Part shown: positions 5,402 through 28,058 of the stretch, piece after piece
Position numbering within the stretch: position 1 is the stretch's first letter
Layout: each line of letters begins with the position of its first letter
Origin: Candidatus Micrarchaeota archaeon
Lineage (GTDB): Archaea; Micrarchaeota; Micrarchaeia; Anstonellales; Bilamarchaeaceae
Direction: 5' to 3'
DNA: 63,147 bases
Assembly (NCBI GenBank): GCA_018812625.1
Contig: JAHJDH010000012.1
Span: 1-63,147 of the forward strand
Made by a program: the position numbers and the translations under genes
The notes under the pieces: model-generated
The model's database searches: none
The model's input: the letters and a program-made list of their open reading frames with translations, nothing else
Told to the model about the DNA's origin: nothing

Positions 5402-5833
5402 ATGATGAAACTTATGGGTCTTGTTTTAACCGGAGCAGATGTGAAAAAGGCAACTAGCAGCATTCCAAAGAGTGTTAATGTTGATCTTGCAGTTACAAAA
5501 ATCACGAAAAAAGATGCAACAACAATTACTCTTGATTTTGCATATATTATTGATTATCTGCCAAAAATCGCAAGAGTAAGGTTGACTGGCCATGCATATT
5601 GTCAGGATAGTGCTCCTAACATCAGAAAAGCACTTTTAACCTATAAGAAAACCAAGAAACTTCCATTTGAAGTTTCAGGCGAAGTTTTGAATATGATCAA
5701 TGCCAATGCTGGAATGAATGCAATTTTCTTAATTAGGCCATTTAACTTGCTTCCACCATTTATGCCTCCTTTAATTACATCTGAGTCACTTGAGCCAAAA
5801 CGAGTTCAAATGAAATCAAAGAAGAAAAAATAA
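5402..5833 (+). CDS. Conserved hypothetical protein, probable SecB-like fold
   Basis: Four beta-strands then helices, ending FNLLPPFMPPL, like the SecB C-terminal motif. Recognised by pattern only. Confidence 0.45.
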   Translation: MMKLMGLVLTGADVKKATSSIPKSVNVDLAVTKITKKDATTITLDFAYIIDYLPKIARVRLTGHAYCQDSAPNIRKALLTYKKTKKLPFEVSGEVLNMINANAGMNAIFLIRPFNLLPPFMPPLITSESLEPKRVQMKSKKKK

Positions 5834-5873: not shown

Positions 5874-8800
5874 TCACCACATCACTCTAAAGTTACCCAT
5901 GATTCCCCATCCCATAGGAGCATTCATAATTCCAGTAACGCTTTCTTCTTGTCCTGCCCATGGACTGAGTTGTTCTGGGGATGTAACTGAACCTGGTGCT
6001 GTTGGCCAGCTTCCTGAGTATCCCATAATATGACCAGAGATTATCGTTCCTGGGTCACTGCTTCCTGGATCCTGCCTTTCATAGGTTACTCCAAGGCCTC
6101 CTCTTAGAACTGGATATGTTTCGTATTCTGCTGCTGGATGAAGGGACCCTTCAGGCTCTGGACTTGTGGATGCATCCTCAAGCATTCTCCTTCTCTCAGC
6201 TCCTCCTTCAAAGAAGAAATGGAGACTAAGAGATTCACCTGTAGTGATGTTTGTTCTTGCCCATGTGAGTCCAACTCCCGCAGTGGTTCTTTGAAGCTCA
6301 TTTAAGTCTGAACACTCCCCTCCGCTTAGCCTTGAACAAACCTGAGCCATTTCATCAGCATTTTCAAAGACATCATCACTTGCAAATACTACTTGTCTTG
6401 TTGTCTGGTTGAAGAACACGTATGAGTATAGCTGTTCGTTTACCCTTTCAGTATTAAGCAGTGTAAGGCGATGACTTAATCCAACCTGCCAATTGGTCCA
6501 TTGCTCGTTTCCATATGTTCTCTGACCATACAATACACCTGCAAGAAGATCCTGTCTGTGATCTTGCAATAACTGTGCAAGTGCACCTATTGTCCAATTG
6601 CCCCCTGGGCTATACTGCTCATGACCTGCTTCGGTAAGAGGTATTGTTAGTCCTCCCATGAGTCTAAATGCTGTCAGTGTTCGAAGTCTTCGATCTCCTG
6701 AGAATGTAAATTCGTAGTCTTCGCCTTCTGTTGAAATGTCCAGTCTGCTAACTCCATGTCCAATGTAGTTGCCAGATTCTTCCCATTCATCAAGGTCTTC
6801 CTGAGTTCCAATCATGATAGAACCTCTTGAATTTGGACCTGTTCCAATTCGGGTTACCATGATGAAATATCTATTTCTTCTCTCTGGACTGCCTCCTTCC
6901 ATTTCTGCATTGAGGTGGCTTCCATAGATAACATCATATCGCTCTGCCTGCTGTCTTCCATGCGAGTTCAATGCTGCTGCAAGGCAAGGTCTTATGTTCT
7001 GCTCAATTATTCTTCGAACTTCGTCTCCAGTTAATTCTGCTCTTGCTGGCGGCTGTCTAATATTGACTTCAGATAAACTTGCTTCAACGCTTCCGCTTGT
7101 TCCTGCTCTTCGTACAAATTCAGTTTCTACTTCTTCAGGAGTTCTCAATACCCATCCAAGAGAATGAACATTATTTTCAATGAGCTGTACCAGTTCTTCT
7201 CCATATGCAGTAGCAATGCGTTCTCTGTTTGGATTAACTCTTCTAAGTTCTCTATATATGTCTACAATTGCTTCTGCAGTTTCGCTGCTTCTTCTTGAAG
7301 AAATTAACATTGCAAGGGGATCTTCATCCTCTTCAATCATTCTTGCAAGTTCAGTTCTCACTTGTGCAACAGGGCGAATCATCCACTCAAGACCATTTCC
7401 TCTTTGTGCATGAACAATATCTGCAAATCCTTCGCCATAAATTCTTTCCATTCTATCATGGCTGTATGCAACACTTCCAAGCCTGATATATGCATCACGA
7501 GCAGCGGCTGGATGATCTGAAGTTCTATGAAGCGTAACATTGCGCTCATATCTTGACAGTTCAATTGAAGGCCAATCAAGAACTCCAAAACCCATATATG
7601 CATCAAGATATGGATTTGCCCTCTCACTTCTTTGTACCTGGAATCCTCCTGTTGAATCAGCATCTTCTACAATCATTATTGATGAATGGGTGTACCCATG
7701 ACCAAGAAGGTCGATGTATGCACGAGCCGGCCTTCCAAATATAAACATTCCATAAAGATTTGCATATGCTGTTTCATCATCGGTCCACTGTCCTGTTGCA
7801 ATTGTGTAAATCCTTAATCGCTCTCCATCATATCCATAACCAAGTGCAAATCTCCAAATATCACTTGTAAAGTCATTTTGAAGACTTGTTGATAATCCTT
7901 GTAGAATCTGTTCTTCGTTTGTTGGATTTTGCTGAATGTCTAACATTGCCTGGTCTATCCTGTCATACAGTCTACTAAATCCAGGAACTCTTTGCACTCC
8001 AGCAAGAATTCCATGTCTCCTTGCCCAGTATGCCATAAGTAAACTTGCATAATGTTCATTCGGTGTTTCTGGCTGATCTTCTGCTGTTCCTTGCCAGCCC
8101 TCCATTCTTCCATACATGTATGTTCCAGCTACTAACCATCCAGTATCACGAGCCTCGTCCTCTCCCCAACCATACATGCTGACAAGAACATTTCTCATTG
8201 TTGCAAAAACTTCCTCTGATTCCTGATCTACTGCTCTGAATTCTCGCAGCAGATCTACTTCAGTATATCCACCAGTAAGTCCATGCCCATATGATCTGTG
8301 CGCGCCTGTCTGCCTTTCATATCTCCATCTGGCACCAGCTGTTAGTGGATATCCACCAACTGCACGGAATTCCATTGATGCTTGTCTTGGAGCAATTGCC
8401 ATTCTTCTCCACATGAATTCTCCAGAGCCCTCTGCCCAATGCGATCCATCTATACTTGTAGAATCCTCAGGATTCATTTCAAGAATCTGTGCTCCCCTAT
8501 AGAATCCTGCATAAATATCTCGAGCTCGTCCATCACTGAGAATGTGGGTTATTGCTTGTCCCATGGCCTCTTCAGCATGTTGTGGAGTCATAGTTCCCAT
8601 ATCCCGAACAACCTGTCCAAGTGCGAGAGTAGTTGAAGTATCTCCCCTAGTAGTTGGAATAGTAAAACCTACTGCAGCGCCATCAAAACCAGCAAGAGCA
8701 GATTCTCCGTTAATCTCATTCCAAACTCCCTGCTCGCGCGCAAGTCTCTCAATTTCTGCTTCGCCGGTTTGAGCTTGCTGCTCTGCATTTAGCCCAAGAT

Positions 8801-11800
8801 GTCTTTCTATTAATCTAGTTCTCTCTGCACCTGAAAGTGCTGGTGCAACTGCACTATTTCTTCCTGCAAATCTAAGGCCTGCCAGAATATTTCTGGTATC
8901 TGTACTTCCATATAAGTAATTGAGTATCTGTGCGTGCGTATCAATTCCATATGCAAGATCATATGCATTTCCAGTTGATCCATCAATGTAGAACAGCCTT
9001 GTTCTAAGCTGGCTTCTCTCATCCTGCAATAACTCACCAACTGTGCCTGCAGGAGCACCTTCTGGAACTGGCGCGCGAAGCTCTGGCGCATGTTCTCCGC
9101 CGACTATAACAAGCATATCTCCTCCAGAGTCTCTTGCAATTCTGGAATATGTTTCAAGAAGTCCAGTGTATCTTTCTCTACTTTGTACCTCTCCAGTTTC
9201 TTCAGTTGTTTGGTTAGCTCCTTCATAGTTGAATCGTATATTTCCTCGCTGCAATCCAACTCCCTGTCCAAATGCAACTGGAATAACTCCAGCAACTCCA
9301 ACTGGAAGTCCTGCTGCCTGAGCTTCAATATCAACATCAGTTTCAGCTGTTTCACTATCTCCTGAATCCTCTGATTCTACTGCTGTTCTTCTATGAGTTA
9401 CAACCCCCCGGCCTCGAACTCCTCCGGTAATTGTTCTTCCCTGTCCAACTCCTCCAACTGCTACTGCGTCTGTTGAAGTTGTATCTGAGTCTGTTGCAGT
9501 TGGGATGGTTCCCTCATGACCGTAATAGCCACCAACTTCCCAATCATGACGAAGCCAATAGCTACTATAGTCTATTGGCATCTCACCAAATAATCTTGTT
9601 ATTTCTCTTATAATAGTTGACGCGCCAAGGGCTCCGATTCTATATCTTTGCGGAATTCCGTGTATCATATGTCTTCCAAGTGTTGGGTGCAGCATGTCAT
9701 ACCTTCTTGAGAAATATTCAGTTGCACCAGAATCAAGTCCAAATCTGCTTGGAGGCTCAATCAAACTTCTTGGCATTGTTGGAGATGGGATTAAATTCCA
9801 AGGTTGTGCTGCTTGTCCATAAAGTTGTGGAAGTGGTTCCATTCCTTCCATTTGCAGGAAGTGGGGCCTGTACCTATATCCTTGAGGATTCCATGGGCTT
9901 TCCATAAGTTGCCTTTCCGGAACTCTTCTAAGTTCATCCTCCATTCTATTGTGATCATATGTTGCAGTAACTCCTGGAAGTCTCTGTCCAATTCTGGCAA
10001 ACACTTCAAGGAAGTATTCTCTGTTTCTATGTGTGCTGTAAGAAAGAGTAGCTCCTGCTGTTGAGTACATCCTGCTGAATATTGTATTGAACGCTTCAAT
10101 TCCGGCAACAAGTGTTCTTTCATCCTGTGCAACGCTGATTATTGCTGGAAGAACCTGCAGAATGAATGGACCAACTAAGTATGGATCTCTTTGACTAATC
10201 AATAATAGAGAATTCATTGTTGCCCGCGCGGCACTTGTTCCAAATTCTGAGCCCAGGCTTCCAATTCTGCCAAGTCCAACTCCAAGATAAAGTGCATCAA
10301 TAATTGAGAGCTGGTTTCTAAGATTTGTTGCTTCTCCTTCAGTAAACCCTCGTGCATCTTCTGCATCAGCAGCTATTCCGCTCTCACGTCTTCCCTGGAG
10401 ATATGTGCTCTCAAGCTGCCCGTAGAATGTTCTTCCTGCAGTAATCAAATCTCTTCCTGATTCACTGCCAAGGAAACGTGCAAGGTCTTCTGGAGTTTGA
10501 AGTCCGCTTTCTGCAGTTCCTGGCGGAAGACTGATACTGTATCTTCTTGCAAGTGTTTGCAGTTGTGAATTTAGAAGGTCCAGATTAATGAAATTTCTAA
10601 ACAGATAATCGTTTGATCCAAACTGGTCTCTGTAATGGTTAATTGCAAGAGTTAAGTTCGCACCAAGATCATCACTGGTTGCAGTTGCAAAAACAAGAAC
10701 TCCTTTGAGTCTGGAATAAACTCCTGGAAGAACATCTGCAACGTGCCTGAAGTTTTGCATAAATTCTCCACGTGCAACTCCATCTCCTGCTTCAAAGCTT
10801 CTTTGTAGCTGCTCTAATGCAGCCGCATCAACTTGTCTTAGGTGCTCAAGATCACTAGTGCTCAGGTTTTCAAGGAACCTAAGTTGCGCTCTGTTTCTCT
10901 CAACCATTTGCACAAATGCTGCTCCATATATTTGTCTCAGTCCTGCAATTCTTGCAGTTCTTGCTTCTGATGCCGGAGTGTTCAAAGCTCCATAAACAGA
11001 ACCAAGTGCATAAAGCAGTTGTTCGTCTTGGTGTCTGTATGCTCTGTGAAGCGCAGTAACTACTCTGGTATATGCTTGTGGATATGCGCGGTATAATGAT
11101 TGTCTTACTGATTCTGGAAGTGCAGTTACTTCTTCAAGTCCTGCTCTTGCCTCTGCAAGCGGAGCTAAATGTTCTCTTTGTCTTTCCACTGCACTGACAA
11201 ATCTATCGCCATAAAGCTCTACCATTCTCTCTCTCGTCTCAGTTCCATCAGGACGAGCTATTGCACGATAAACTCTGATAGTTATATTTGCAAACAATAC
11301 GTTTTGGCCCATTCTCAAATTTTGTTCGCTGATGCCAGTTAAATTTTCAAGGAACCCAAGAACTGGTCTGTGATCATTTATCAATCTGACAAATTCAGTT
11401 CCATGTCTTCTTTGCACATCAGCTACATTCCCGCTTCCTCTTGAAATTGCATTGTATGCAGTTCCAAGGTCTCTGCTAAATCCACGGTCTCCCATGCTGG
11501 AAATAAATGCTCTAAGCTCTGGATCAGCTCTGCCAAGTACAGCAAAAATAATATCTCCGATTACTGCTTGTTTGTCTGGATTTGTAACTCCACTATACCA
11601 GGCCATTCCACTTCGAAGCGATCCAACATCGCTTGAGCTTGCAATTGTTTCTGAAAATCCATCAATACTGCCTGCAGTTCTTGAAAGGTCTCCTCCAGTT
11701 TCTGCAAGATGAATCATTGAAAATGCAAGTTCAACTGATCTTCTAAGTTCAGTTCCACTAATCATGCTTTCTTGCAGTGCTCGCTGTTCTTGAAGAAGAG

Positions 11801-14498
11801 TTTGTATTTCTGCTTGATCAGCACCACCTGCTGCAAGTCTTATTCTTCTACTTTCTTCTTCCCACCTATTGATTCTTTCTTCAAGCATTGGACGTGCAGG
11901 TGCAAGCATAGGATCTTCAAGCTGCCTTCTCATGCTCTCAAGATCACGTTCAATTGTACTGGAATTTGCTGTGATCTCGCCTCGGCTTCCTTCAAGAGCT
12001 TCTCCTGATATTCCCCTTGTTCTTGCTGCTTCTCTGCTTGCAACTGGAGTTAGGAAAAATCTTCCAAGCGAATCAATTCCATCCATTCTGGCAAGTCCGC
12101 CTCTAGTCAAAGCTTCTCTTCCACTGGCATATGACAGAATGAATTGTACTGGAGTAAATGGAAATAGTAATTCTTTTGCTGATCTTGTTATTTGGTCTTG
12201 TCCTCGCAAAAGTCGTTGTTCAATACTTGCAACATTTCCGCCTAGCCATTCTAATTGCGCTCTGTTTTGAGTAACAAAATCTACTGCGGCTTGCCCATAC
12301 TGAGTAACTAATTCTGCTGTAGTTGGACTTGCCTGTCCATGAGCTGCATAAATTGCATGAAGTGCTCTTGCAAGACCTCCAATTGAATATCCAATTGCAG
12401 GTGCTCCTCCTTGAGTAGTCAGTGTATCAGCGTCACGAACAAAAACATCAGATGTTCTTGTTGTCATCTCATGTTCTATTTGCCCTACTGGTCGAACTGC
12501 CCAGTGTAATGTATCAAGATTTTGTGAAACATAATTCACAAATTCACTACCATATCTTGTAGCAAGCAATTCTCTTGTTTGCCTGAATAATGTAATCTGT
12601 GCGTATGCTGCAGATAATGTAGTTCCGCCGTCTTGTGGGAAAAGCGCCTTTAGCTGAACTGCAACTTCATCTGATTCTGCTCCTCTTCCAGGTGCTGATC
12701 TTCGATCAAGTTCGGCCTGTACCTGTTCTGGAGTTCCTGCAAGCCAGGATAGTTCAGCATAATGTTCAGTGATAATTGAGCCTGCCGGAACAGCACCTAT
12801 TGCAAGTCGCTCTGTTGCAAGCTGTCCATAAACATCTGCAAGTGCAGCGCCTCTGTCAAGTCTTTCTCCGGCTTCCACTCTAATTGTCATTGAAGAAATA
12901 CGTCTTGCATGTATGTCTTCTTCGCGTGCTCTATCTGTTAATACTCTGTTTAGATCAGTGGCAGTTCTTATCATCCAGGTTGGTCTTCTTGCTGAAACAA
13001 GTGCTATCAATTCAGGACTGTATGCTCCTCTGAGTCTATCCATATTTGGAGGGCTTCTGAGAAGTTCTATGTAAATATCCCTGATTGCAATTGATCTCAC
13101 ATTTCTTCTGAAATTCATTTCAATACTTGAGACTGTGCTGTTGCCCTGGATTTGCGCTCTATATAATCTTACAAATTCATTGAAGAAAGTATCATTTCTC
13201 TCAAGCGGTACTCTAGTGTATGTTCGAGATCCGATTTCACCTGCACCAGCAACAAAATTCCCACTATAAATTCTGATAAATTCATCTCTTGCAGTTGTAC
13301 TTCCAGTTGCAAGCACCTGCTCCATTAAAGTTGCACATCTTCTGGCTAGTCCAAGCGAAATAATGTCAACAAATCTGTCAACTGTTTCATTTCCATGTGC
13401 CTGCCTAAGCTCTTGAAGCCTTGAGACATTGCCTGTACTTGCAGCTTCATACATTTGCGAAACTGCAGTTGCAAATGCTTCTGGATCTACCTGGTTATTG
13501 TGGTGAGTATAATATGATCTGTAAACAAGGGAAATTGGTGATGGCTGTCTATGGCCTTCCTCTCCAACCTGGTCTCTTGTTATGCGCTCCAGAAATAATC
13601 TTTGGAATCCGGTCCAGAATTCTCCTGATGTACTGTGCGCTCCAAATATTCTTCTAAATTCATCTCGCTGTGCAGTATCTCCAGTGAGCATAAAGTTTCG
13701 AAGAGAATCAACACATCTTGTTGCTTGCTGGTTTGGCAATTCTCCAGATAAAAGATTAGTTAAATTTTCTCCATGTCGCTCTCTTATTTCAGCAAGTCCT
13801 GTTCCTTCGAGTACATGTCTTGCAGCATCTTCTGCAGTAGCATCTGTATGAGCTCTTCTATATGCTCTGAATCTTCCAATTTCACTTTCTGCTGGAGCCT
13901 CTGTTTCTCCTGCTCTCTCTACTCGCTGAACCACTGCATCTATAAGTGCCCATGTAGTTGCATTGGCAGCAAGCCGTGTTCTAATCTCACGAACTTTGGT
14001 AATAAAATCTTCCATAATAGAAGGTTCCATTCGAATTCCAATAACATGATCAAGATCAGCTTCATATGCTTCAAGAATTGGACGAACTTGAGCATCACTT
14101 CTCATTGTTGTCATTCTGCTATGAAGCTCATCCATAAATTCTCTGTTTTCAGTTACCGGCTGCTCCTGAAATTGACTTGTGATAAGAGCCCTGTATCTTG
14201 TATAATCAGCTTCATTTCCTGTTAAAATATAACTTTGATATGCGGTTGCAGCATCCCTAGCTCTTTGCTGAAGGCCTGCTACTTCTTCCTGTTCCGCGTG
14301 GGTAGCTCCCCTACGTCGAGTTGCCGGTTGTGCCATAACAGAATTTACCCCGAGATAATTTATATTATTACCGCCTAAGAAAACTGAGACTGCAACTACA
14401 GGTGCAAGCAAATATTTTCCAAAAATAGAAATTTTTCTGCGGCGCGGTAGCTCCCCATGATCCCCCTTTTGATCATGTTTTATTTTGGATCCAACCAT
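5874..14498 (-). CDS. Giant exported protein (2874 aa): signal peptide, alpha-helical repeats, Gly/aromatic beta-rich C-terminus ending in Trp
   Basis: Uninterrupted 8.6-kb ORF with AGGAGA SD. Basic n-region + LLAPVVAVSVFLGG h-region + VMA/Q cleavage-like site. Codon usage resembles the host's. Confidence 0.9.
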   Translation of the reverse strand: MVGSKIKHDQKGDHGELPRRRKISIFGKYLLAPVVAVSVFLGGNNINYLGVNSVMAQPATRRRGATHAEQEEVAGLQQRARDAATAYQSYILTGNEADYTRYRALITSQFQEQPVTENREFMDELHSRMTTMRSDAQVRPILEAYEADLDHVIGIRMEPSIMEDFITKVREIRTRLAANATTWALIDAVVQRVERAGETEAPAESEIGRFRAYRRAHTDATAEDAARHVLEGTGLAEIRERHGENLTNLLSGELPNQQATRCVDSLRNFMLTGDTAQRDEFRRIFGAHSTSGEFWTGFQRLFLERITRDQVGEEGHRQPSPISLVYRSYYTHHNNQVDPEAFATAVSQMYEAASTGNVSRLQELRQAHGNETVDRFVDIISLGLARRCATLMEQVLATGSTTARDEFIRIYSGNFVAGAGEIGSRTYTRVPLERNDTFFNEFVRLYRAQIQGNSTVSSIEMNFRRNVRSIAIRDIYIELLRSPPNMDRLRGAYSPELIALVSARRPTWMIRTATDLNRVLTDRAREEDIHARRISSMTIRVEAGERLDRGAALADVYGQLATERLAIGAVPAGSIITEHYAELSWLAGTPEQVQAELDRRSAPGRGAESDEVAVQLKALFPQDGGTTLSAAYAQITLFRQTRELLATRYGSEFVNYVSQNLDTLHWAVRPVGQIEHEMTTRTSDVFVRDADTLTTQGGAPAIGYSIGGLARALHAIYAAHGQASPTTAELVTQYGQAAVDFVTQNRAQLEWLGGNVASIEQRLLRGQDQITRSAKELLFPFTPVQFILSYASGREALTRGGLARMDGIDSLGRFFLTPVASREAARTRGISGEALEGSRGEITANSSTIERDLESMRRQLEDPMLAPARPMLEERINRWEEESRRIRLAAGGADQAEIQTLLQEQRALQESMISGTELRRSVELAFSMIHLAETGGDLSRTAGSIDGFSETIASSSDVGSLRSGMAWYSGVTNPDKQAVIGDIIFAVLGRADPELRAFISSMGDRGFSRDLGTAYNAISRGSGNVADVQRRHGTEFVRLINDHRPVLGFLENLTGISEQNLRMGQNVLFANITIRVYRAIARPDGTETRERMVELYGDRFVSAVERQREHLAPLAEARAGLEEVTALPESVRQSLYRAYPQAYTRVVTALHRAYRHQDEQLLYALGSVYGALNTPASEARTARIAGLRQIYGAAFVQMVERNRAQLRFLENLSTSDLEHLRQVDAAALEQLQRSFEAGDGVARGEFMQNFRHVADVLPGVYSRLKGVLVFATATSDDLGANLTLAINHYRDQFGSNDYLFRNFINLDLLNSQLQTLARRYSISLPPGTAESGLQTPEDLARFLGSESGRDLITAGRTFYGQLESTYLQGRRESGIAADAEDARGFTEGEATNLRNQLSIIDALYLGVGLGRIGSLGSEFGTSAARATMNSLLLISQRDPYLVGPFILQVLPAIISVAQDERTLVAGIEAFNTIFSRMYSTAGATLSYSTHRNREYFLEVFARIGQRLPGVTATYDHNRMEDELRRVPERQLMESPWNPQGYRYRPHFLQMEGMEPLPQLYGQAAQPWNLIPSPTMPRSLIEPPSRFGLDSGATEYFSRRYDMLHPTLGRHMIHGIPQRYRIGALGASTIIREITRLFGEMPIDYSSYWLRHDWEVGGYYGHEGTIPTATDSDTTSTDAVAVGGVGQGRTITGGVRGRGVVTHRRTAVESEDSGDSETAETDVDIEAQAAGLPVGVAGVIPVAFGQGVGLQRGNIRFNYEGANQTTEETGEVQSRERYTGLLETYSRIARDSGGDMLVIVGGEHAPELRAPVPEGAPAGTVGELLQDERSQLRTRLFYIDGSTGNAYDLAYGIDTHAQILNYLYGSTDTRNILAGLRFAGRNSAVAPALSGAERTRLIERHLGLNAEQQAQTGEAEIERLAREQGVWNEINGESALAGFDGAAVGFTIPTTRGDTSTTLALGQVVRDMGTMTPQHAEEAMGQAITHILSDGRARDIYAGFYRGAQILEMNPEDSTSIDGSHWAEGSGEFMWRRMAIAPRQASMEFRAVGGYPLTAGARWRYERQTGAHRSYGHGLTGGYTEVDLLREFRAVDQESEEVFATMRNVLVSMYGWGEDEARDTGWLVAGTYMYGRMEGWQGTAEDQPETPNEHYASLLMAYWARRHGILAGVQRVPGFSRLYDRIDQAMLDIQQNPTNEEQILQGLSTSLQNDFTSDIWRFALGYGYDGERLRIYTIATGQWTDDETAYANLYGMFIFGRPARAYIDLLGHGYTHSSIMIVEDADSTGGFQVQRSERANPYLDAYMGFGVLDWPSIELSRYERNVTLHRTSDHPAAARDAYIRLGSVAYSHDRMERIYGEGFADIVHAQRGNGLEWMIRPVAQVRTELARMIEEDEDPLAMLISSRRSSETAEAIVDIYRELRRVNPNRERIATAYGEELVQLIENNVHSLGWVLRTPEEVETEFVRRAGTSGSVEASLSEVNIRQPPARAELTGDEVRRIIEQNIRPCLAAALNSHGRQQAERYDVIYGSHLNAEMEGGSPERRNRYFIMVTRIGTGPNSRGSIMIGTQEDLDEWEESGNYIGHGVSRLDISTEGEDYEFTFSGDRRLRTLTAFRLMGGLTIPLTEAGHEQYSPGGNWTIGALAQLLQDHRQDLLAGVLYGQRTYGNEQWTNWQVGLSHRLTLLNTERVNEQLYSYVFFNQTTRQVVFASDDVFENADEMAQVCSRLSGGECSDLNELQRTTAGVGLTWARTNITTGESLSLHFFFEGGAERRRMLEDASTSPEPEGSLHPAAEYETYPVLRGGLGVTYERQDPGSSDPGTIISGHIMGYSGSWPTAPGSVTSPEQLSPWAGQEESVTGIMNAPMGWGIMGNFRVMW

Positions 14499-14885: not shown

Positions 14886-15539
14886 ATGGCTGATGGAATA
14901 GTCGGAACAATCTCCTGCTGGGGATATGGGTATTCTGTGAAGATGCTTGTCAATGGTAAGGATATAGGCTTATCAGGTGGAAAGTCAGAGGGCAAACGGA
15001 TATTTGGCACTGACCACCCCATGTATGATGAGGCACCTCCTGAAATGCGGGAAAAGTTTTTTGTTCTGAAAAATGGTGCAAATGAGATATCGCTCGAGTT
15101 TAGCAAAACATCTGCCAATGAAAGAGATTATCTGCAAATCTCAATGGAACTGGAAGGTTTTCCTGCGCCGGTTTTTCTGCTACATAGCAGAACAAAAGCT
15201 TCATCTAAAATAAAAAGCTCCATTCAGATCCCTTCTGAAGGTGAGTTCATGCCAGTATTTGTTTCGGATGCAGGAGAGAACAAGCTCGTATTCATCCATG
15301 TGCAGAGTATGAATTGTAATGTCACTCCAATATTGAACGGCAAGGAGGGGATGAGCCTAAATGGCACGCCTGGTCAGGTTGTGCTTGAGAATGTGAAAAC
15401 TGGCAAAAACGAGCTGGTAATTCAATATCAGACTCAAGAGAGACTGAAAATCGCTCTGATAACTCCTGAATGGGTGAAATATCTGGAAACTGCTGATGGC
15501 TCTGAAAAAACAGAGACATTTACATTTAATTCTAAGTGA
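14886..15539 (+). CDS. Hypothetical all-beta protein with an internal duplication
   Basis: GAGGT SD. The halves VKMLVNGKDIG...LKNGANEISLEF and VTPILNGKEG...VKTGKNELVIQY resemble each other. Confidence 0.7.
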   Translation: MADGIVGTISCWGYGYSVKMLVNGKDIGLSGGKSEGKRIFGTDHPMYDEAPPEMREKFFVLKNGANEISLEFSKTSANERDYLQISMELEGFPAPVFLLHSRTKASSKIKSSIQIPSEGEFMPVFVSDAGENKLVFIHVQSMNCNVTPILNGKEGMSLNGTPGQVVLENVKTGKNELVIQYQTQERLKIALITPEWVKYLETADGSEKTETFTFNSK

Positions 15540-15544
15540 GAATC

Positions 15545-16597
15545 ATGAATGACCTGCTTGAAAAGCTGAAAAGCCCGGACATTGCACAGAGGAGGAAGGC
15601 TGCTAATAATCTTTCGGAATCCGGTATGGATATAGCTCAGGCATTGCCTGCAATAAAGGAGGCGTTCGGTAAAGAGAAGGACACCTGGATCAAAGGAATT
15701 TTGGCAGGGGCTCTTGCCGCGCATTATGTTCAAAAAGGCATGACAGATGAGGCAGTCAAGTTTCTTGATGATAAGAATGAACGGGTTAGATACTACACTG
15801 CAAAGGAATTGCGAAATGCCAGCATGGCCGGAGCTGACATAACAGCTGCTCTTGTGCCTCTTATGAAAGTGCTAATTGGCATGGATGTGGATGTTCGGCG
15901 TGTGGCTGGCCAGGCGATAGTTGCCTATTATGCCAAAAGAAAACAATGGAATGATATAAATGCAATTCTGGTTGCCAAGGGAGCGCGGGGCAAATATGAA
16001 ATTATCGTTGCCCTGCAGGATTTTGTCAGTGGGGTTATTGAGCTTCCAAGTCTCTTGAGCATGCTCAAAGATGGCGACTTTGACTCAAGGAAAGAGGCGG
16101 CTTCGGTTCTTAGAAAAGCATCAGAAACTGGTATTGATATTTCTTTTGCTGTTCCTGCGCTAAAATCAGTGCTCTCAGATAACTCAGCCGGAGAGGAGGC
16201 CCTCAATGCGCTGAAGATATATGATTTGAGAGCAAGCGGCAAATGCAGCAGATGCCTGGAGGGCCTTTTTGAAGGGGATGTTCTGGAGAAACTGGCTACT
16301 ATCATAAAAGGAATGTCCTGCTGTGGCGGGGATGTCTCGCACAATATTTTCCGCTGTCCTGACTGTGGCAAATACTATCTGACAACTTTCTTTGACCATT
16401 CTGATTTCGATCACGGGCAGTTTTATGTTTATGGGATAAGCGAAAAGGACGCTAAGATGGTAGTTGTTGAAATTGGGAAGTGCCCGGCAAATGGGAATCG
16501 GCATTGCGACTGTCAGGTTCACATGGTGTTTTTGAAGGATGAGAAAGTGCCTGTTGATGGTAAGCTGAAACACTCTGTCGAAAAGATATCTACATAG
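15545..16597 (+). CDS. HEAT-repeat protein with Cys-rich (putative Zn-binding) C-terminal domain
   Basis: HEAT-like units (RRKAANNL, VRYYTAKEL, VRRVAGQAI, SRKEAASVL) followed by CSRC, CC, CPDC, CPANGNRHCDC. Confidence 0.75.
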   Translation: MNDLLEKLKSPDIAQRRKAANNLSESGMDIAQALPAIKEAFGKEKDTWIKGILAGALAAHYVQKGMTDEAVKFLDDKNERVRYYTAKELRNASMAGADITAALVPLMKVLIGMDVDVRRVAGQAIVAYYAKRKQWNDINAILVAKGARGKYEIIVALQDFVSGVIELPSLLSMLKDGDFDSRKEAASVLRKASETGIDISFAVPALKSVLSDNSAGEEALNALKIYDLRASGKCSRCLEGLFEGDVLEKLATIIKGMSCCGGDVSHNIFRCPDCGKYYLTTFFDHSDFDHGQFYVYGISEKDAKMVVVEIGKCPANGNRHCDCQVHMVFLKDEKVPVDGKLKHSVEKIST

Positions 16598-16606
16598 GGG
16601 GATAGC

Positions 16607-16957
16607 ATGGATACTATATTTGATTACAGCCTTATTTTAGCAGGAATTTGCCTTGCCTTTTTCATTTTGATTTCCATAATAGGCTCGGTTCTTGAGAAAA
16701 AAATGGACAAGGCTAAGCATAAAAGGGCAGGAAAACTCATGATAAAAATTTATTTTGTCCTTTTCATTGTTTTTGGATTTTCTTTGGTTCCAATTATGGC
16801 AGGGATGATTTTTGGATTCATTAAAGATGTGCTCCAGGCCGATCTCTCGGAGTTTGAACTGCCTATAATCCTTTTATTTTGGGGACTTTACATTGTTGGC
16901 TTGGCTATAGCATACCCTGTGATGAAAAGAAGCAGCTTCTTCGAACCAGGAAAATAA
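16607..16957 (+). CDS. Small 3-TM membrane protein
   Basis: Three hydrophobic segments; GGGGGA SD. Confidence 0.75.
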   Translation: MDTIFDYSLILAGICLAFFILISIIGSVLEKKMDKAKHKRAGKLMIKIYFVLFIVFGFSLVPIMAGMIFGFIKDVLQADLSEFELPIILLFWGLYIVGLAIAYPVMKRSSFFEPGK

Positions 16958-16992: not shown

Positions 16993-19392
16993 TTACAGTC
17001 CTCTTAGTACTCTTCGCTGTTGTCCTCTTTCTGGTTGTACTGGCGCAGTTTGAGCTGGTGCTTGTTGCTCTTCAAGAGTTATTCCTTCAATTCCGCGTGC
17101 CCAATGTCCTGCTGGCCTTGTTCTATTTCTTTGTCTCCATGAATACACTGCAAGAGCTGTAAGTGCTTGCGCACTTTCACGTCCGTCTGCTGTTAGTGTA
17201 TCTGTTGTTCCTGGAAACACTTGTCTATTTAATATTCTCAAATCTTCTGCAAGTCTTTGATTTGTTTCTCCAGTAAGTCCTGCAACATGATTGACAAATG
17301 CTACCATTGCTTCAATCATTATTCTTCGATCTCCAGCAGGTGTAGTTTCGCTGAGTCTGACAGATGGTCTTGTTACTGGTTGATATCTTGTCTGTCCTGA
17401 TGCCCAAGCATGAAATGCTCGTCCTACTGGAGTACTTGTATCATGGAAAAGTTCATTGAATACTCTATCAAATGCTCGTGGAAGGTCATCTCTGTTAAGG
17501 TGTCTCAGTGCTCTTTCAAAGACTGGTGTAGTCGCACTTCCTGGAACAGTTGAGGCAACATCAGTAGGAAGCCTTAAGATAGATACAATCCCTTCTGGCC
17601 TTCCGGTTTGCACTGCCCTAAACAATTCGACCTGAAGGTTTTGCCAATGCCTGTGCGCATGTTCTTCAAGCGGGGTTCTTTGTGGTTGTGCCGGCTGTGC
17701 AGTTCTTGTTACTGCTCTTTGCCAGACTGCCTGCTGGATCATTCTTCCAATTTCATTTCTTCCTCTTAAATTTGGATGAAGATGATCTCCTCCGTCATAT
17801 TCAGGTCTTAGCGTTGCCGGGGTTCCGGTTCCAAGCGATGACAAGTCAACAAATATGATATCTGTTCTCTGGCGAAGCCATGCGTCAATTGCATCTGCTC
17901 TTCTTTGAGCACCTGCACTCCATGTGGGATATGTTGCATAAGGAGGACTCCCCCAAACAACTGGCAACACTCCTGCACTATGAGCCCTTGCAATCATTGT
18001 CTCTAAATTGGCTTGAACTGTTTCAAGTGATCTTCCGTCATTTACAATTACTGCTCCTGATATTACTACTATGTTCGGCCGTCCACGTCCGCCGATTCTA
18101 TGGCCATTATATCTTCTTAAAACTCCTGACATTGCCTCTCCTGAAACACCGTCAGATTCAACGCGTGCGCTTGGAGCATCTCTTCTAAGAAGTCTTTGCA
18201 GCTCCCTTCCAATTGCCCCTCCCTCAGTAAGTGAAGCTCCAACAATTAGTACATTTGGATTTGCAAGAGCAGCTGCGTATCTGCTCATATCCAAACCAGT
18301 TTGTGCTTCTGCAACTCTTGTTGTTTCTGCTGGTTGTGCCCCTGGAATCTCAAGAACTTCAGGAGCTTGCCATGTTGCAATTCTGCTTTGCGCTCTTCCT
18401 CTTCCGCGTGCCGGATGCTCCTGATACCATCTTCTCATATATAGTGATGAGCTTGTTACTGTATCTGCATCTATTGGACTGCTAAGGTATGCTCTTTGGA
18501 AAACCAATCTCACTTCTTCTCTATCTGCATCTTGCTCTGGAGTTCGAACTAAATCAACATGTGCAAGTCTTCCATGTTCTGTATCCTGATTGGTTAGGAG
18601 TTGGCTTATTTCTTGTCTGAATCTCGTGTTTCCACCATTTGGACGCGCTTCAAAATGCATCAAGTAATATCTAATATAGAAATTAGCAGCTCTAATTACA
18701 GGATCACTTGCATCTGCTGCAATAGTTCCACTGCTTGCAGTAATTGCACTTTGAAGTCTTGTGAAATCCGCATTAGTTCCAGCTTGTGATGAGAGATATA
18801 ATCTGAATCTTGGAATCTGCAATAATTCATTGAAAACAGAAACTGTTGTTGCTCTTTGATTAGGTGTTCCGGCGGCGCTTCCTGCTCTTTCTCCTGTAGT
18901 TAGGAACTGCTCAACATACCTGCTATTTGTGTGAAGTGCGCTTGCAGCACCTGTGGAAGCTCTGTCAGATCCCCTGGAATGTCTAAGCTGTGTTTCTATC
19001 CACTGTGCAGAAATTGTTGGTCTTGGAGCCTCTCGTGGAGGTGGAGTTGGTGGCCTTGCTGCTGGAGTTCTTTCTCGTGGAGGTCTGCTTCTTGGGGGAC
19101 GGGATCTTGGAGTGGTCCTTGGTGCTGTTCCCCCACCTGTTTCTTCTCTTGCGCCTGGATGTAATTGTCCATGAATTCCACTTGCAATTCCTCTGGCACC
19201 TAGCCGTTCAAATGCAGCTGCATCAGCCTCAGGAGCTCCTCCAATTCCTACATTAATTGCTCTTCTGACTTTTCCAGTCAATATTGCAATAGTATCATCT
19301 GCACTAACAGTAATTCCAGTAACTCTTCTCCATCCACTTGGTCCAACTACGACCAATGTGTTTCCCTGAAGTTCTACTCTTGCGCCTGCCAT
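16993..19392 (-). CDS. 799-aa protein with central SGNH/GDSL hydrolase domain and Pro/Arg-rich linker
   Basis: Block I VLIVGASLTEG, block III VIVNDG, block V DHLHPN. Start overlaps the upstream stop (TAATG). Confidence 0.82.
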   Translation of the reverse strand: MAGARVELQGNTLVVVGPSGWRRVTGITVSADDTIAILTGKVRRAINVGIGGAPEADAAAFERLGARGIASGIHGQLHPGAREETGGGTAPRTTPRSRPPRSRPPRERTPAARPPTPPPREAPRPTISAQWIETQLRHSRGSDRASTGAASALHTNSRYVEQFLTTGERAGSAAGTPNQRATTVSVFNELLQIPRFRLYLSSQAGTNADFTRLQSAITASSGTIAADASDPVIRAANFYIRYYLMHFEARPNGGNTRFRQEISQLLTNQDTEHGRLAHVDLVRTPEQDADREEVRLVFQRAYLSSPIDADTVTSSSLYMRRWYQEHPARGRGRAQSRIATWQAPEVLEIPGAQPAETTRVAEAQTGLDMSRYAAALANPNVLIVGASLTEGGAIGRELQRLLRRDAPSARVESDGVSGEAMSGVLRRYNGHRIGGRGRPNIVVISGAVIVNDGRSLETVQANLETMIARAHSAGVLPVVWGSPPYATYPTWSAGAQRRADAIDAWLRQRTDIIFVDLSSLGTGTPATLRPEYDGGDHLHPNLRGRNEIGRMIQQAVWQRAVTRTAQPAQPQRTPLEEHAHRHWQNLQVELFRAVQTGRPEGIVSILRLPTDVASTVPGSATTPVFERALRHLNRDDLPRAFDRVFNELFHDTSTPVGRAFHAWASGQTRYQPVTRPSVRLSETTPAGDRRIMIEAMVAFVNHVAGLTGETNQRLAEDLRILNRQVFPGTTDTLTADGRESAQALTALAVYSWRQRNRTRPAGHWARGIEGITLEEQQAPAQTAPVQPERGQQRRVLRGL

Positions 19393-22300
19393 TATTGCCG
19401 CCTCGTTCTATGTGCTCTTGCATATCCGTGGATATGATTTCTGTATGCAGTTCTAGCTCCTCTTGCGCTAAATGAAACTGTCATATTCGCTCCTTCTCCT
19501 TCAACTGTTATTCCAAGAGATCTCCTTAGCCTAGCTGATCTCTCAGATGTTCCAGTAATTATTCTGTATAAATCTGCTTTTATTTCTGTTCTAGCGCGCT
19601 GTCTGTTTGGCTGCTGTCTTGCTTCGATGCCTTCCTGATCCTCTCCAAATGCTGCTCTCATCACAACACCATCGCCGGTTCTACGTGTGCCTTCACCTTC
19701 AATATCATTAAACAGTGCGTCAACTCTAGCATCAACGAACTCAGCTATTTGAACTCCGCCGCGCTCTTCACTTTGATAAAAGCTTTGCGCCTCTGCACTA
19801 AGTCCAACTGTTGGAGTTCTCTCTACTTCTGCTGGCTCATCTGGTGCTTCATCCTGCACTTCTGCAGGTTGCCTTGTTTCAAAGCCTGGTCTTCTTGGAT
19901 ATACTGGAGTTTCTTCATGCTCAAGTACTTCTGCCCGCGTTCTGCCAGCTCCTGTTCTTGGTGGAGTTGCGCTTCTTGCATCTCCTCTGCCTCTTCGTTC
20001 TGCTCCACCTGCCTGTTCTCTTATTTCAACTGGGGTTGATCCGCTCCACCAGCCTCTTGATCTATAATAGCCTGATTGCCTATCGAGATACTCATAGATT
20101 GCTTGCGGAGCCATGTCTTGAGTTTGTGCATTTGCTTGAATATGTCTTAGAATTTCATGTAAATTTTCGATCTGATGGCTATTGTCTGCCATCCACTTCA
20201 TCACTCCATTTGTAGCTCGTCCTCCGCGCATTTCAGTATGAGTTATTGCAAATGCAATTGCTTCTGCATATTCACTGCCTCGAAGTGCTCCATCCATCTG
20301 AGCAAATATTCTAGGTGCAACTTGTCCGCTTTCTCTTGCAGTTGCAAGTGCTGTTCCTGGGTTTTCTGCAATCAATGTTGCAAGTGCATTTAAGTCTCCG
20401 TAAATCTCTTCACCAAATTCTCCTTCAGTAAGATTGAATCTGTTGAATGCACGAAGAGCAGCAGTGTTGCTTCCATATGTTCGAATCAGTGATTCAAGTG
20501 TTGATCTAATTTCTGGATCAGTGCAAGCTCTTCGGTCAAGATTTCCTAAGAATGAATTCTGTGCAATTGCTGTTGCGAGGTATAAATGCTGCTCGGTTAA
20601 CCTCTGTTGCAACACCTCATCTGAAGTTTCTCGTCCGTATCTTTGTGAAGAAAATTGTGAAATTGCATTATCTATATATACTACAGGTATATGTCCCTGC
20701 TGAACCTGCATCCAGATAAATGCAAATATGTTTGGATTATCACTGAGGAATGAAACCATATTTGCGTGTTCCTCGCTGATTTGTCCTGATCGAAGCTCAG
20801 AAGTTGAAATAACTCCTGCATCAACAAGCATCTGAGTTGCAACTCCCTGTGCAAATGACATAACAATTCCGCGTGATCTCCAGTTTGGCATTCTAAGGTC
20901 TGCCAGATCAGTTATGTCAAGCTGCTGCTTATGCTCATTTAATAAAATCACATCAACTGCTTCAAGACTCATTCCCCATGGCTGGATTATTGCAAGCAAT
21001 TGTCTTTCTGCTTCAGTGCGGTCTGCACTTCCTTCTGCAGCAGTTCTTCTGGTTGTTAATAATTCATTGATCTCTTCAAGCTGTCCTGCCATTTCTCGTC
21101 CATCTGTGATGAACTCATTCATCATCCTTGGATTCAGGTAATGTCCGCTTCCTTCAAGAAGACTTTGCAATTGTTGCTGGTTTCCTGGTCTTCTGTCAGT
21201 TGATTGTGGAAGTGTGTTTGGCAAATGGTAATAAAATTGCCTTCCACCGTCATCATTGATTATCCAAAGCGCATTTTCTTCTGATATAGAAATTCCAAAG
21301 TCTCTTTGTGCTGCTGCAATACCTTGTCTGATTTCATCTTCATCAGAAAGCATGTCATGAAGCGGCTGATATACAAAATTCCATCCGATATATCCAAGTC
21401 CTGCCCAAGCTGCAATTTGAGGCACCATTCTCAGAGAGTTTGATGGGCGAAGCGCTGCATAAGGTGTTGATCCACCAGCTCCTCTTGATGCTCGAACTGC
21501 TCTATAATATTGAAGTCCTCCCCAATGCACACCTGGTTCATGTGCCAAAAACCATCTACCTGCTCCGCTTACAGATTCACGGACTGTTCCACGTACTGTC
21601 AGGGAAGCGTCTCTTGCAAGTATTCCTGCCTGCTCTGAAATTCCTGGTATTAGCTGCTCTATTCTTGGGTTTGATATTTCTATTGCATGGAAGTTTCCAC
21701 GCATCTCAGGAGTTCTAAATGATCTTAATACTCTTGATACTGGAGTTCCCATATCAAGAACTACCTCCATATTCCCTCCTTCGGCAATTGCATGTTCAAA
21801 TATTCTTCGTTGCTGTGGTCCATAATTTTCCCGAACTGCTCTTGCGACTCTATCGCTTCGAAGCACAGTTGTTATTGCCTCATCCAGGTTTCCCCCTTGT
21901 AGCATCTGCTCTGAAAGGCCTCTTCGAACTGCCTGTGCAACAGGATCCCCTTCTGCAGGGATTCTTCTAATCATGTCTCTTGTTGCATTTCTAAGTGTAA
22001 GTCCTTCTGCAATTATTGTATCTCCGGAAATTGCTCCTCTGCTTTCAAGTTGCAATAATAATGCAGTACGATCTCCAGCTCCAAATTCTGTTCCAAGAAG
22101 TCTTTCAGTTTGTGCAAGTGGCCTTAGTGCAGCTCTCTGTTCCCTTGTTTGATGAATCAATTGCTGATTTTGTTCAAATGCTGTTTCATGAGATGTGTTT
22201 GCCTGATCATGTGCCCTTTCAAGTCTTGCGAGTCTTCGTCCAGTCAATCCTCTTGTTCTTCCAGCTTCAAGATTTATTCGTGCTGTTTCAAGAGCTTGTC

Positions 22301-25300
22301 CTGTTCTCTCAACTACTGCTTCAGAACTTGCAACGCCACTTTCAAGCTCTGCAAGTCTTGCTGCTGCAGTGCGTTCTGTTGCTTCTAATATTAATGTCAT
22401 CTCCTCTCTTGAAAATGGTCTTGCATCAGTCAATTCCATATAAGCTTCTGCTGTTCCCCTGCTTCCAGCTGCGCTTCTAATTGATCCTTGTGTTCTTGCA
22501 AGTGCTCTTGCAAGTGCGGGGTCAGTTCTTGCTGCTGCTTCAAGATGCGGCCTCAGGTTTGGAGAAGAATACATTTTTCTCAAGACTCCTAGATACCCAT
22601 CTCTGGTTCCTCTGCCTGCACTTGTTGCCATTCTGTCTATTCTGGAAAATAATTCAACTGATCTCTGTACACTGTTACGAGCAACATTTCCAATTTCAGT
22701 TGCTTCTGCTCTTGCTTGAACTGCTGCACGTTCTGCTGCCTGAATTTCAGCTGATGGTGCTCCGCCTTGCCTTAATGTCTGGACATTTGCTTCTGCTCTA
22801 GCTGCTTCTGCGCTTGCTCTTCTAATTACAAGAGCTGTTTCTTCAGGACTCATAGTAATATCTGATAATATATCTCCCATTCTTGCTTGTGCATCTTCTA
22901 AAATTGCATCTGCGTTTGGAGGCTCAGCGCTTCTTCTTGCTGCTGCTCTTCTTTGTCTCCATCCACGAACTGCATCACGTGTTCTTCCATATGCACGTTC
23001 TATTACTCCGACTCTTGCAATTCTTTGAACTTCTGGAACAGGTGCTGGGGGTTCTTCAACTGGAGCAGGTTCTCTTACTCCAGTTGGTTCTCTAGGAGTT
23101 CCGCCTCTTCGTCTTCCGCCTTCTGATACTTGCCTGCTTGCTCCACCTGCTGGTGCTCCAGTTCCTATAGGAGGTCCTGATGGAGGAGTGGCACTTGCCC
23201 GAATTGGCGGCATAGTTGTTCCGGCAGTTACTTGTGGCTGTCCTGGAACTTCAATGACATATTCTGTTCCAGTACCTGTTCTTACGACCTCGAATTCCAT
23301 GGTTGCTTCTGCTGCATTTGCTTCAGTAATCACTTCATCCGGAACAAGTCTTCTAAGTGGTCCTGGTCTTTGCGGTGTTCCGAATTCTTGCTGTATTGCA
23401 CGAGTTGAAAATGGTGTATCTATTCCAGTATCAAGTGCATGTCTCACTGCTCTGTGCTGAAGAAGTGCATCTATTCTAGCACCTGCTTGTGGGTTTTCTG
23501 CTCTTATTGCTTCGAGTCTTGCCCGTGCTGCAATCATGCTGCTTGTTCTTGCTTCTGCAGGAGTTGCTTCAAACCTTGCAAGCTCTCCCAAAAATGATCT
23601 GAATCTCTCAGGGTTTGAAATAAATGACGCAAGATCACTAATTGCTACTCTTGCTCCTCCTCCTGGTCCTCTTGGAGGCGGGAATTCCAATCCTCTAATT
23701 CCGCGCACTAGTGCAGCTTCTGCAATTTGGTTTAGTTCTCCTCCGCGAAGTGCAGTTCGAATTGCACTTTGCCTCATAAGATGAGAAATTTGAGTTCTAA
23801 GTCTTGATGAGAATCCTCCGAAAATTTCAAGTGCAATCGGGTTCTGCGCACGAAGCAGTCTCATGAATCTAAACATTGTACTTGGGTTTCCAAGCTCACG
23901 CGCTCCCAATATCTCAGGTGGCGCTTCTCCAAATTCTAGTGCAAATTCTCTTGCATAAATTCTTGCTTGAGCTCTTCCAGATCCTGCAATGGCTGCTCTT
24001 CCCAGAGCAGATCCTCCCATTACTGCCCATGGGAAAACCGCAAGTGCAAACATAAGAGTTCCAGTAGTACTATCTCCTCTTTGGAATGCCTGGTATCCAT
24101 GATAACCTGCATATCCTGAGAAGAAGGTTGCAATTCCTAGATTTGCAATATTCAATCCAGTTGCAATTCTTGAGAGTCGTATTGCATGAGTAGTAGCGCC
24201 AGCTGCCCGGGCTGCAAGTGCGGCTCTGCCTACTCTTGCTGCTGCTCCCATCATTCCAAGGCTTACAACTACAAGTCCTGCCATTGCCCAGCTTTCTGCT
24301 GATGCATGGCCATGAACTCTATATTCAGTTACAATCTGTTCAGCTGCCATTCCAAGGAATATTGCTCCAGACACATACGGACCAACTACTGGGATAAATA
24401 CAGATACAAGTCCAGCTCCAATTAACGCCCACTGAAGCGCTTGCTGATTTGTAACAACTGTTTCCTGCATTACTCTAAGTATTGATTGTGCTCGCTCCAG
24501 TGAAGCAGTTGCTACTTCTCCTTGATGTTCGTAAGCATAGCGAAGCTGACTCATCACTTCACTTTGCGCTCTTGCATAATCAGTAGTTATCTGGGCTGCT
24601 CCACTTTGCGGTATTGCAAATATTGAAGTTTCAAGAAGAGTTGCAATTTGCCCTCTTCTATTGAGCTCATCATCACTGACATTTCCAAAGAGAATATTGT
24701 GGAATGTGCTCAAATGCGCAGATCTATAAAATTCAAAACCTTGCATTCTTCGCTGTTCATCATATGCAGTTCTAACTGCTTGTCTTCCCCCAAGAGCCTG
24801 CGCGAGTCCTGGCGCGTGTGCATGTATAATTTGTGTTGCCATTGGAGAGTTTTCTGCCAGGTATCCCATCAGGGCTTCCTCCCTGCTTGATACTGCCTGC
24901 ATATAGGACTGTTCTGCTGCTTCAAAGTTTCCAGCTAAGATCTGTCTTCTTGTAGTTTCAAGTTGTCCTGTACACTGAACTATCAGTGCTCCAGTTCGCG
25001 CTGCTACTTCTCCACTTGTAGTTAACACGACCTGTCTGTATTGTTCGTTAAGAGCAAGCTGTCCATTTAGAACTGAAAATGCACGTGCAATTCTTGCTTC
25101 TCTGCCCACTTCTCCAAGGAATTCTCCTAGTTGTTCTTCTGGGAATGCTCCATTTAATCCTTGCAATTGTTCAAAGAAAGCAAGTGCCTCTCCAGTCAGG
25201 TGTGGCATTACATATGTTGAAGTTGCCTGAAGCGAGCTGATATAATGAATAAGTGCAGTTCTTCTTGCTTCAAGTGTTACTAATGCTGTTCGCCTTGGTG

Positions 25301-28049: not shown

Positions 28050-28058
28050 AATCTTCAC

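Follow-up and report, generated by a model that had tools for sequence, protein, structure and literature searches.

Does an archaeon encode a giant protein whose C-terminal tail is built like an outer-membrane beta-barrel, and in which membrane could such a tail lie? This question is raised by the gene for P0001, a protein of 2874 amino acids (5874-14498, minus strand; stop codon at 5874-5876), which lies in a 63,147-nucleotide stretch of DNA, here called the window, comprising positions 1 to 63,147 of contig JAHJDH010000012.1 (assembly GCA_018812625.1). The host is a tiny symbiotic archaeon of the Micrarchaeota with a genome of 1.27 Mb, and the window is itself archaeal, with nearby genes coding for aTrm56, fibrillarin, eIF-6, L31e, prefoldin and a geranylgeranyl reductase. 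An initial annotation, made from the letters alone, had read the last ~1,230 residues of P0001 as a very large barrel or pore inserted in a second membrane of this cell or in the membrane of a partner. Membrane beta-barrels, together with the aromatic sorting signal at their end, are considered a hallmark of the outer membranes of bacteria, mitochondria and plastids. In the literature searched we found no archaeal example, the only mention being of a possible distant relative in Altiarchaeales (PMC12228718); a protein type with a barrel-like tail and an aromatic last residue is not documented in archaea.

Our analysis partly supports this reading. The best-supported interpretation, which rests on structure prediction, is that a giant, Sec-exported envelope protein would carry, on the far tip of its helical stalk, a new beta module of barrel type formed by this region. 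A true barrel would be relevant to the folding of such proteins without Omp85, to the debated architecture of the Micrarchaeota envelope and to the means by which DPANN symbionts physically tap their hosts. Without embedding in lipid, the module would still represent a new fold family, from which large barrel-shaped envelope complexes might be built. The module, of 300-700 residues and well conserved, is amenable to expression and assay.

Strand motifs and the terminal aromatic residue

We located all seven strand motifs of the initial annotation in P0001: WEVGGYYG (residues 1653-1660), GNIRFNYEG (1752-1760), WRFALGYGYDG (2215-2225), LLAGVLYGQR (2651-2660), WQVGLSHRL (2670-2678), AGVGLTWAR (2740-2748) and LRGGLGVTYER (2798-2808). 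These motifs and the C-terminal end are conserved in ~40 homologues, all from one Micrarchaeota family. The final 1232 residues contain 140 glycines, 109 aromatic residues and no lysine.

Bacterial outer-membrane barrels end in a strand with a terminal Phe or Trp. The terminal strand of P0001 (residues 2863-2874; 5877-5912, minus strand) has the sequence GWGIMGNFRVMW, as the annotation had given it, with alternating hydrophobic residues and a C-terminal Trp in a beta-signal-like arrangement. A terminal Trp or Phe was present in 22 of the 22 related loci with an intact C-terminus, and the pattern was seen in 34-35 of the 64 representatives recovered by exhaustive search, many of the remainder being fragments; as a baseline, 7% of the open reading frames (ORFs) of the same genome end in Phe, Trp or Tyr. 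The pattern persists at 20-25% identity and in a divergent subfamily, where the endings include WGFMIYGGWVW, DWSLRGDFKLTF, WWVGAYVQLKF and RYGLVVGGFTF.

Predicted fold, hydrophobic belts and strand topology

We modelled residues 2174-2874 (701 residues) with AlphaFold2 (AF2) on 40 sequences, relatives of 20-25% identity included. The model reached a predicted local distance difference test score (pLDDT) of 82.5 and a predicted template-modelling score (pTM) of 0.62, with the five models ranging from 80.5 to 82.5 in pLDDT, and DSSP assigned to it ~20 long amphipathic antiparallel strands, mostly of 10-18 residues. Eight predicted strands, S1-S8, occupy residues 2215-2324 (7527-7856, minus strand; pLDDT mostly 72-92) and include the hairpin WRFALGYGYDG-ERLRIYTIATGQW; ~12 amphipathic antiparallel strands of 11-18 residues each make up residues 2581-2874 (5877-6758, minus strand). 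Between the two blocks lie two helical YG..FV repeats (residues 2329-2510; 6969-7514, minus strand), homologous to repeats in the N-terminal part of the protein and missing from the distant relatives P0042 and P0075, followed in the AF2 model by a small alpha/beta subdomain (residues 2511-2580; 6759-6968, minus strand). A larger model, of residues 1675-2874, had many long strands with helical segments between them, ~38-40 strands being predicted over 1200 residues. Taken together, the models predict ~35-40 long amphipathic antiparallel strands in the last 1230 residues, interrupted by helical-repeat inserts and a conserved core. The annotation had described many short strands in this region and had not picked out the helical inserts or the conserved core: many strands were indeed modelled, but residues 2329-2510 are helical, residues 2511-2580 are alpha/beta and residues 1931-2173 were modelled at pLDDT <50, so that ~180 residues are inserted helical repeats and ~240 have only a low-confidence model.

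Taken strand by strand, the sequences show a hydrophobic belt. At ~5 alternate positions per strand, 85-100% of the residues in the 40 homologues are hydrophobic and 0% are charged, as in W-F-L-Y-Y, W-I-A-A-L, W-V-L-x-L, L-L-F-F, L-G-L-V-Y and W-I-G-F-V-W. Conserved charged and aromatic residues flank these belts, and the opposite face of the strands presents conserved Arg, Glu, Asp and Gly.

As a rule of topology, outer-membrane proteins have short turns at one side and long loops at the opposite side. The strands of P0001 and its homologues are connected in a like manner, turns of constant length (3, 3, 3 and 4 residues) alternating with loops of variable length (8-26, 20-30 and 25-33 residues). 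These longer loops are acidic, with 2-7 Asp plus Glu versus 0-1 Lys plus Arg, which bears out the acidic loops described at the outset. A 30-residue loop between strands holds the pair Cys2721 and Cys2729 (6312-6338, minus strand), invariant in 17 full-length homologues. The two cysteines likely form a disulfide, which would place the loop outside the cytoplasm.

Export signal and overall layout

The N-terminus of P0001 was read by inspection as a Sec-type signal peptide (residues 1-56; 14331-14498, minus strand), with a basic n-region and the hydrophobic stretch ISIFGKYLLAPVVAVSVFLGG; a cleavage-like site, NIN.LG.N.(A/V)MA↓QP (VMA↓QP), is conserved in the homologues. It is followed by alpha-helical repeats of the form YG..FV..V..N...L.W, a presumed stalk, over residues 57-1640 (9579-14330, minus strand). 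In a scan with a 19-residue Kyte-Doolittle (KD) window, the signal peptide was the strongest hydrophobic segment (KD 1.98), the next values being 1.74-1.37 at residues 1397-1457 and 1731-1749, and the scan revealed no C-terminal hydrophobic helix or other obvious transmembrane anchor in P0001 beyond the signal peptide. At the level of predicted architecture, the proposed layout of signal peptide, passenger and barrel holds: a signal peptide, a long non-barrel part, amphipathic strands and an aromatic terminus occur in that order.

Structural neighbours and known systems

Both models were compared with the PDB by Foldseek. The best 50 matches were almost exclusively membrane beta-barrels, namely SprA, TonB-dependent receptors, BtuB, BamA, Deinococcus SlpA, LptD, MtrB, Sam50/Tom40, FadL and porins; the sole non-barrel kind was the lipid-wrapping beta-belt of ApoB100, and no propeller, sandwich or beta-helix was among them. 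The resemblance is weak but one-sided. The structural check that the initial annotation had proposed did not yield a soluble propeller or sandwich array lacking a hydrophobic belt, the nearest solved folds being membrane barrels. A viral fold library did no better, its matches to levivirus maturation proteins and to some phage-borne outer-membrane-like proteins all having low template-modelling (TM) scores.

Four known systems share features with P0001. SprA, the 36-strand single-chain barrel of the type IX secretion system (T9SS) translocon (PDB 8gl6, 8gl8), was the best match of the 1200-residue model (expectation value, E, 1.9e-3), with a TM score of only 0.06-0.09 (0.08 for 8gl6). Like P0001, it is a huge single chain with dozens of long antiparallel strands; unlike P0001, it is bacterial, Bam-dependent and without a helical-repeat stalk, and there is no sequence similarity between the two. 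No T9SS-related Pfam or NCBIfam domain was found in the neighbouring genes scanned. SlpA of Deinococcus radiodurans (PDB 8ae1, 7zgx, 8agd), matched by both models, consists of an SLH domain, a coiled-coil stalk and a 30-strand outer-membrane barrel, and it resembles P0001 in that a large, barrel-like beta region at the C-terminus follows a long helical stalk. P0001 differs in being archaeal, in lacking an SLH domain by Pfam and in a stalk made of helical repeats rather than a coiled coil, and the TM scores were 0.09-0.15.

Autotransporters (type V secretion) likewise combine a signal peptide, a long passenger and a C-terminal beta domain with a terminal aromatic residue. Their barrel has 12 strands (PF03797, which had no Pfam match in P0001) and their passengers are beta-helical, whereas P0001 has alpha-helical repeats and a beta region ~4-10 times the size of the autotransporter barrel, with helical inserts. 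TonB-dependent receptors and BamA (22 and 16 strands) gave the best Foldseek probabilities for the 2174-2874 model (BtuB 2guf, 0.96; a BamA model, E 8e-3), but TM scores were 0.13-0.22 and P0001 is without a plug, POTRA or TonB-box features or profile matches to these. Archaeal surface and surface-layer (S-layer) glycoproteins, which bear a C-terminal transmembrane or PGF-CTERM anchor and immunoglobulin (Ig)-like arrays, differ from P0001, which has no C-terminal transmembrane anchor.

A conserved gene trio and the proposed apparatus

In most of the 19 loci at which we found a P0001-like gene, it is the last of three genes on one strand, in an order kept down to 33% identity: a P0002-like giant, an SGNH protein and a P0001-like giant. 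In the window, the first gene of the trio codes for P0002, of 2888 amino acids, with several hydrophobic helices in mid-sequence that we read as polytopic (19392-28058, minus strand). The second codes for an SGNH/GDSL-domain protein of 799 amino acids (16993-19392, minus strand) and in relatives lies directly upstream of the giant gene.

In the mechanism that we propose, the strands would build a beta wall of barrel type, with its conserved and uncharged hydrophobic belt sunk in lipid, and the module would serve an envelope apparatus as its distal anchor or pore. Such an apparatus would be assembled from the trio, with a polytopic giant in the cytoplasmic membrane, the SGNH-domain protein and the stalk-and-barrel protein. 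What the analysis shows directly is the sequence features and their conservation, the predicted strands with their topology, the weak but one-sided likeness to barrel folds and the gene order; barrel closure, insertion into lipid, the choice of membrane and the function are steps that we infer. We place the chance that the module is lipid-embedded, and then more probably in the membrane of a partner than in a second membrane of the cell itself, slightly short of even. A partner cell's membrane seems the likelier of the two, given a genome without Omp85 or another protein of this kind. The most specific version is in our judgment somewhat unlikely: a genuine lipid-embedded beta-barrel, assembled without Omp85 and borne on a 1600-residue stalk, would open a pore in the membrane of a partner cell or in a second membrane of the archaeon itself, and the trio would make up a host-tapping machine.

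Evidence that tempers the proposed lipid-embedded barrel

Several results weigh against placing the module in a lipid bilayer. Omp85/BamA (PF01103), which the initial annotation had suggested looking for, was absent from the P0001 genome and from 15 other genomes that carry the family, whereas seven diderm controls were positive. No other ORF in the 1.27-Mb genome pairs a signal peptide with such a terminus, and among the products of the genome are several surface proteins of the ordinary archaeal type, with a signal peptide and a transmembrane anchor at the C-terminus. Profile comparison related P0001 to no entry of Pfam, NCBIfam or the PDB, outer-membrane families included, whether the whole protein, 1200- and 400-residue profiles or 18 homologues taken singly were used. 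The best profile match was CSS-motif (E 0.006-0.04), which we did not accept as it fell under its cut-off.

The models point the same way in part. That of residues 1675-2874, built on 29 sequences, was poor (pLDDT 57, pTM 0.36). Foldseek matches were weak, with E values of 1e-3 to 0.3, TM scores of 0.06-0.31 and root-mean-square deviations (rmsd) of 10-38 Å, and each search returned one match only at E <= 1e-3. Given these TM and rmsd values, the model is like barrels in local geometry, with long tilted meander sheets, and superposes on no closed barrel. In addition, several strands have conserved Leu, Phe or Val on the opposite face as well, and hydrophobic residues conserved on both faces suggest protein-protein packing.

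The premise that such cells have a double membrane, which the initial annotation had taken from ARMAN, also proved weak. The two envelope layers of ARMAN, and those seen by transmission electron microscopy in ARM-1, have been interpreted as two membranes (PMC4243693, PMC8784108). Both of the cultured Micrarchaeota that have been examined closely, however, possess S-layers: Candidatus (Ca.) Micrarchaeum harzensis has one over its cytoplasmic membrane (10.1101/2021.04.28.441871), and in cryo-electron tomography (cryo-ET) of ARM-1 an S-layer overlies a 21-nm barrel-shaped complex whose composition is unknown (PMC11329633). ARMAN, ARM-1 and Ca. Micrarchaeum harzensis all lie outside the lineage studied here.

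Alternative explanations

The best-surviving alternative is a barrel or wall made of protein only, secretin-like in shape and not in sequence, in which several copies would pack their amphipathic sheets against one another or against the S-layer and so build a giant complex between the cytoplasmic membrane and the S-layer. The ARM-1 complex seen by cryo-ET (PMC11329633) would provide a precedent, as a large barrel-shaped envelope structure from the same phylum; it belongs to another lineage, however, and lies beneath the S-layer rather than in a membrane. Packing between copies would agree with the hydrophobic residues on both strand faces and with a monomer model that matches no closed barrel, and a protein-only structure would suit a genome that has typical transmembrane-anchored surface proteins and neither Omp85 nor another outer-membrane-like protein. 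On the other side, the family occurs in just 16 of the 301 Micrarchaeota genomes sampled, in two genera, and therefore cannot represent a structure common to Micrarchaeota in general. The strict terminal aromatic residue and the uncharged five-position belts flanked by charges are, moreover, more typical of strands embedded in lipid. We regard a protein-only barrel as unlikely, though a serious contender.

Giant adhesins are common in DPANN archaea, and the region could be the ordinary soluble, beta-rich head of one, its likeness to outer-membrane proteins being superficial and explained by long meander sheets together with burial of the C-terminal Trp. The Foldseek scores, which were not significant, leave room for this. 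So does a test of dyad-hydrophobic density, taken as the fraction of residues in 10-residue windows and calibrated on 98 proteins of Escherichia coli K-12. The test was uninformative: outer-membrane proteins of E. coli scored 16-30% and fimbrial, cytoplasmic and inner-membrane proteins scored alike, with the P0001 beta blocks at 25-28%. As such windows fail to separate these protein classes, the strand pattern by itself is not diagnostic. Against a soluble head stand the lack of any soluble beta fold among the best 50 PDB matches, the length of the strands (10-18 residues), the aromatic residue kept exactly in last place in very divergent relatives, and the absence from P0001 of any Ig, cadherin or beta-helix Pfam domain. 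Together these make an adhesin head improbable.

Very improbable is an open lipid-binding beta-sheet, a belt or groove without a pore by which a host-dependent symbiont would grip or shuttle host lipids in the style of ApoB or the large lipid-transfer proteins: amphipathic strands, an SGNH esterase/lipase-type domain in the same operon and ApoB100 as the best Foldseek match of the 2174-2874 model (E 8.8e-4; also matched by the larger model) would fit it, but that match had a probability of 0.14 and TM scores of 0.07/0.02, VPS13, ATG2 and TamB were not among the Foldseek matches, and the turn/loop alternation and terminal aromatic residue are foreign to ApoB and lipid-transfer families.

Range of the family

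A word-indexed search recovered 16 full-length relatives of P0001 at 35-97% identity. All 19 loci found in a scan of one genome per species were from Micrarchaeota, and a scan of metagenomes added five P0001-like loci and no more, giving 24 related loci. The homologue records carry names within Micrarchaeota, such as Ca. Bilamarchaeum and Bilamarchaeaceae. When the C-terminal profile was run exhaustively, as a hidden Markov model, against 1.84 billion representative proteins, just 68 matched, and the two genera that have the C-terminal module belong to one family. Because relatives are so few (68 proteins; the 16 genomes mentioned above) and there is no significant Pfam, NCBIfam or PDB match, the P0001 family is a narrow orphan family.

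A second, P0001-like subfamily of 1750-2100 residues (P0038, P0042, P0044, P0049, P0050 and P0052, all encoded outside the window) is Lys-rich (7-10%). Its members have the conserved core and the terminal aromatic motif and are without helical inserts in the beta region. P0044, the sole member with a named source, is from Bilamarchaeaceae.

In loci L004 and L018 the giant gene is not a single open frame, the longest frames being 1737 and 1687 amino acids. The tblastn match is full length nonetheless, and a frameshift, an assembly error or a pseudogene could explain this.

We considered a foreign origin of the giant gene and rejected it. Its Arg codon usage (AGA 67-71%) equals that of several host genes of the window, and its flanks are archaeal housekeeping genes in 19 genomes.

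Remaining parts of the protein

Between the presumed stalk and the modelled beta blocks lie two further segments. Residues 1643-1930 (8709-9572, minus strand) comprise Gly/Thr-rich beta-hairpins and a short helical part, with moderate pLDDT (60-80) over residues 1695-1840. Residues 1931-2173 (7980-8708, minus strand) form the most conserved core of the wider family, marked by FDGAAVGF, YAGFYRG, MWRR, EDEARDTGW and QRVPG, and distant relatives align chiefly to positions 100-600 of the C-terminal profile. The core has many invariant Arg, Glu and Trp residues, was modelled at pLDDT <50 only and possibly serves as a plug or as a catalytic core.

About half of the homologues (those of L011, L012, L014-L018, L022 and L024) have an extra helical YG..FV repeat in a loop of the first beta block (alignment columns ~160-245). 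As an additional copy has been inserted there in so many homologues, the helical YG..FV module appears, from the alignment, to behave as a mobile insert within the beta region.

Lysine content and neighbouring genes

The trio proteins are nearly free of lysine, with 10, 9 and 1 Lys, against a genome median of 7.9% Lys. Approximately ten proteins of the genome, the trio included, are of this kind (0-0.6% Lys, 8-16% Arg); apart from the trio, they are encoded on contigs C32, C28, C8, C34 and C4, and one is the product of an 8599-amino-acid ORF on C32. AGA, which differs by a single step from AAA for Lys, accounts for most of their Arg codons, and several other genes of the window share this usage. 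Lys is present in remoter homologues of P0001.

Between the SGNH and giant genes lies a cassette of three genes on the opposite strand (14886-16957, plus strand), coding for a 217-amino-acid protein, a HEAT-repeat protein and a small membrane protein. By tblastn, the first two had no counterpart in any of the 24 related loci, that of a 97% identical relative included. In related loci the SGNH and giant genes are adjacent, and by this comparison the cassette looks like a recent insertion.

A Lys-rich protein of 143 amino acids encoded on the other side of the giant gene (5402-5833, plus strand) adjoins it in nearly all loci, even in the rearranged L008, L012 and L017. We considered this protein as a related component and set it aside as apparently unrelated: it has no signal peptide and no domain match. 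Beyond P0002, finally, lies the gene for P0003 (1254 amino acids; 28496-32260, minus strand), which shares a C-terminal domain with P0002: the final ~90-130 residues of P0003 match the C-terminus of the P0002 homologues in L002, L005 and L007. Unlike P0002, P0003 is rich in Lys (7.7%).

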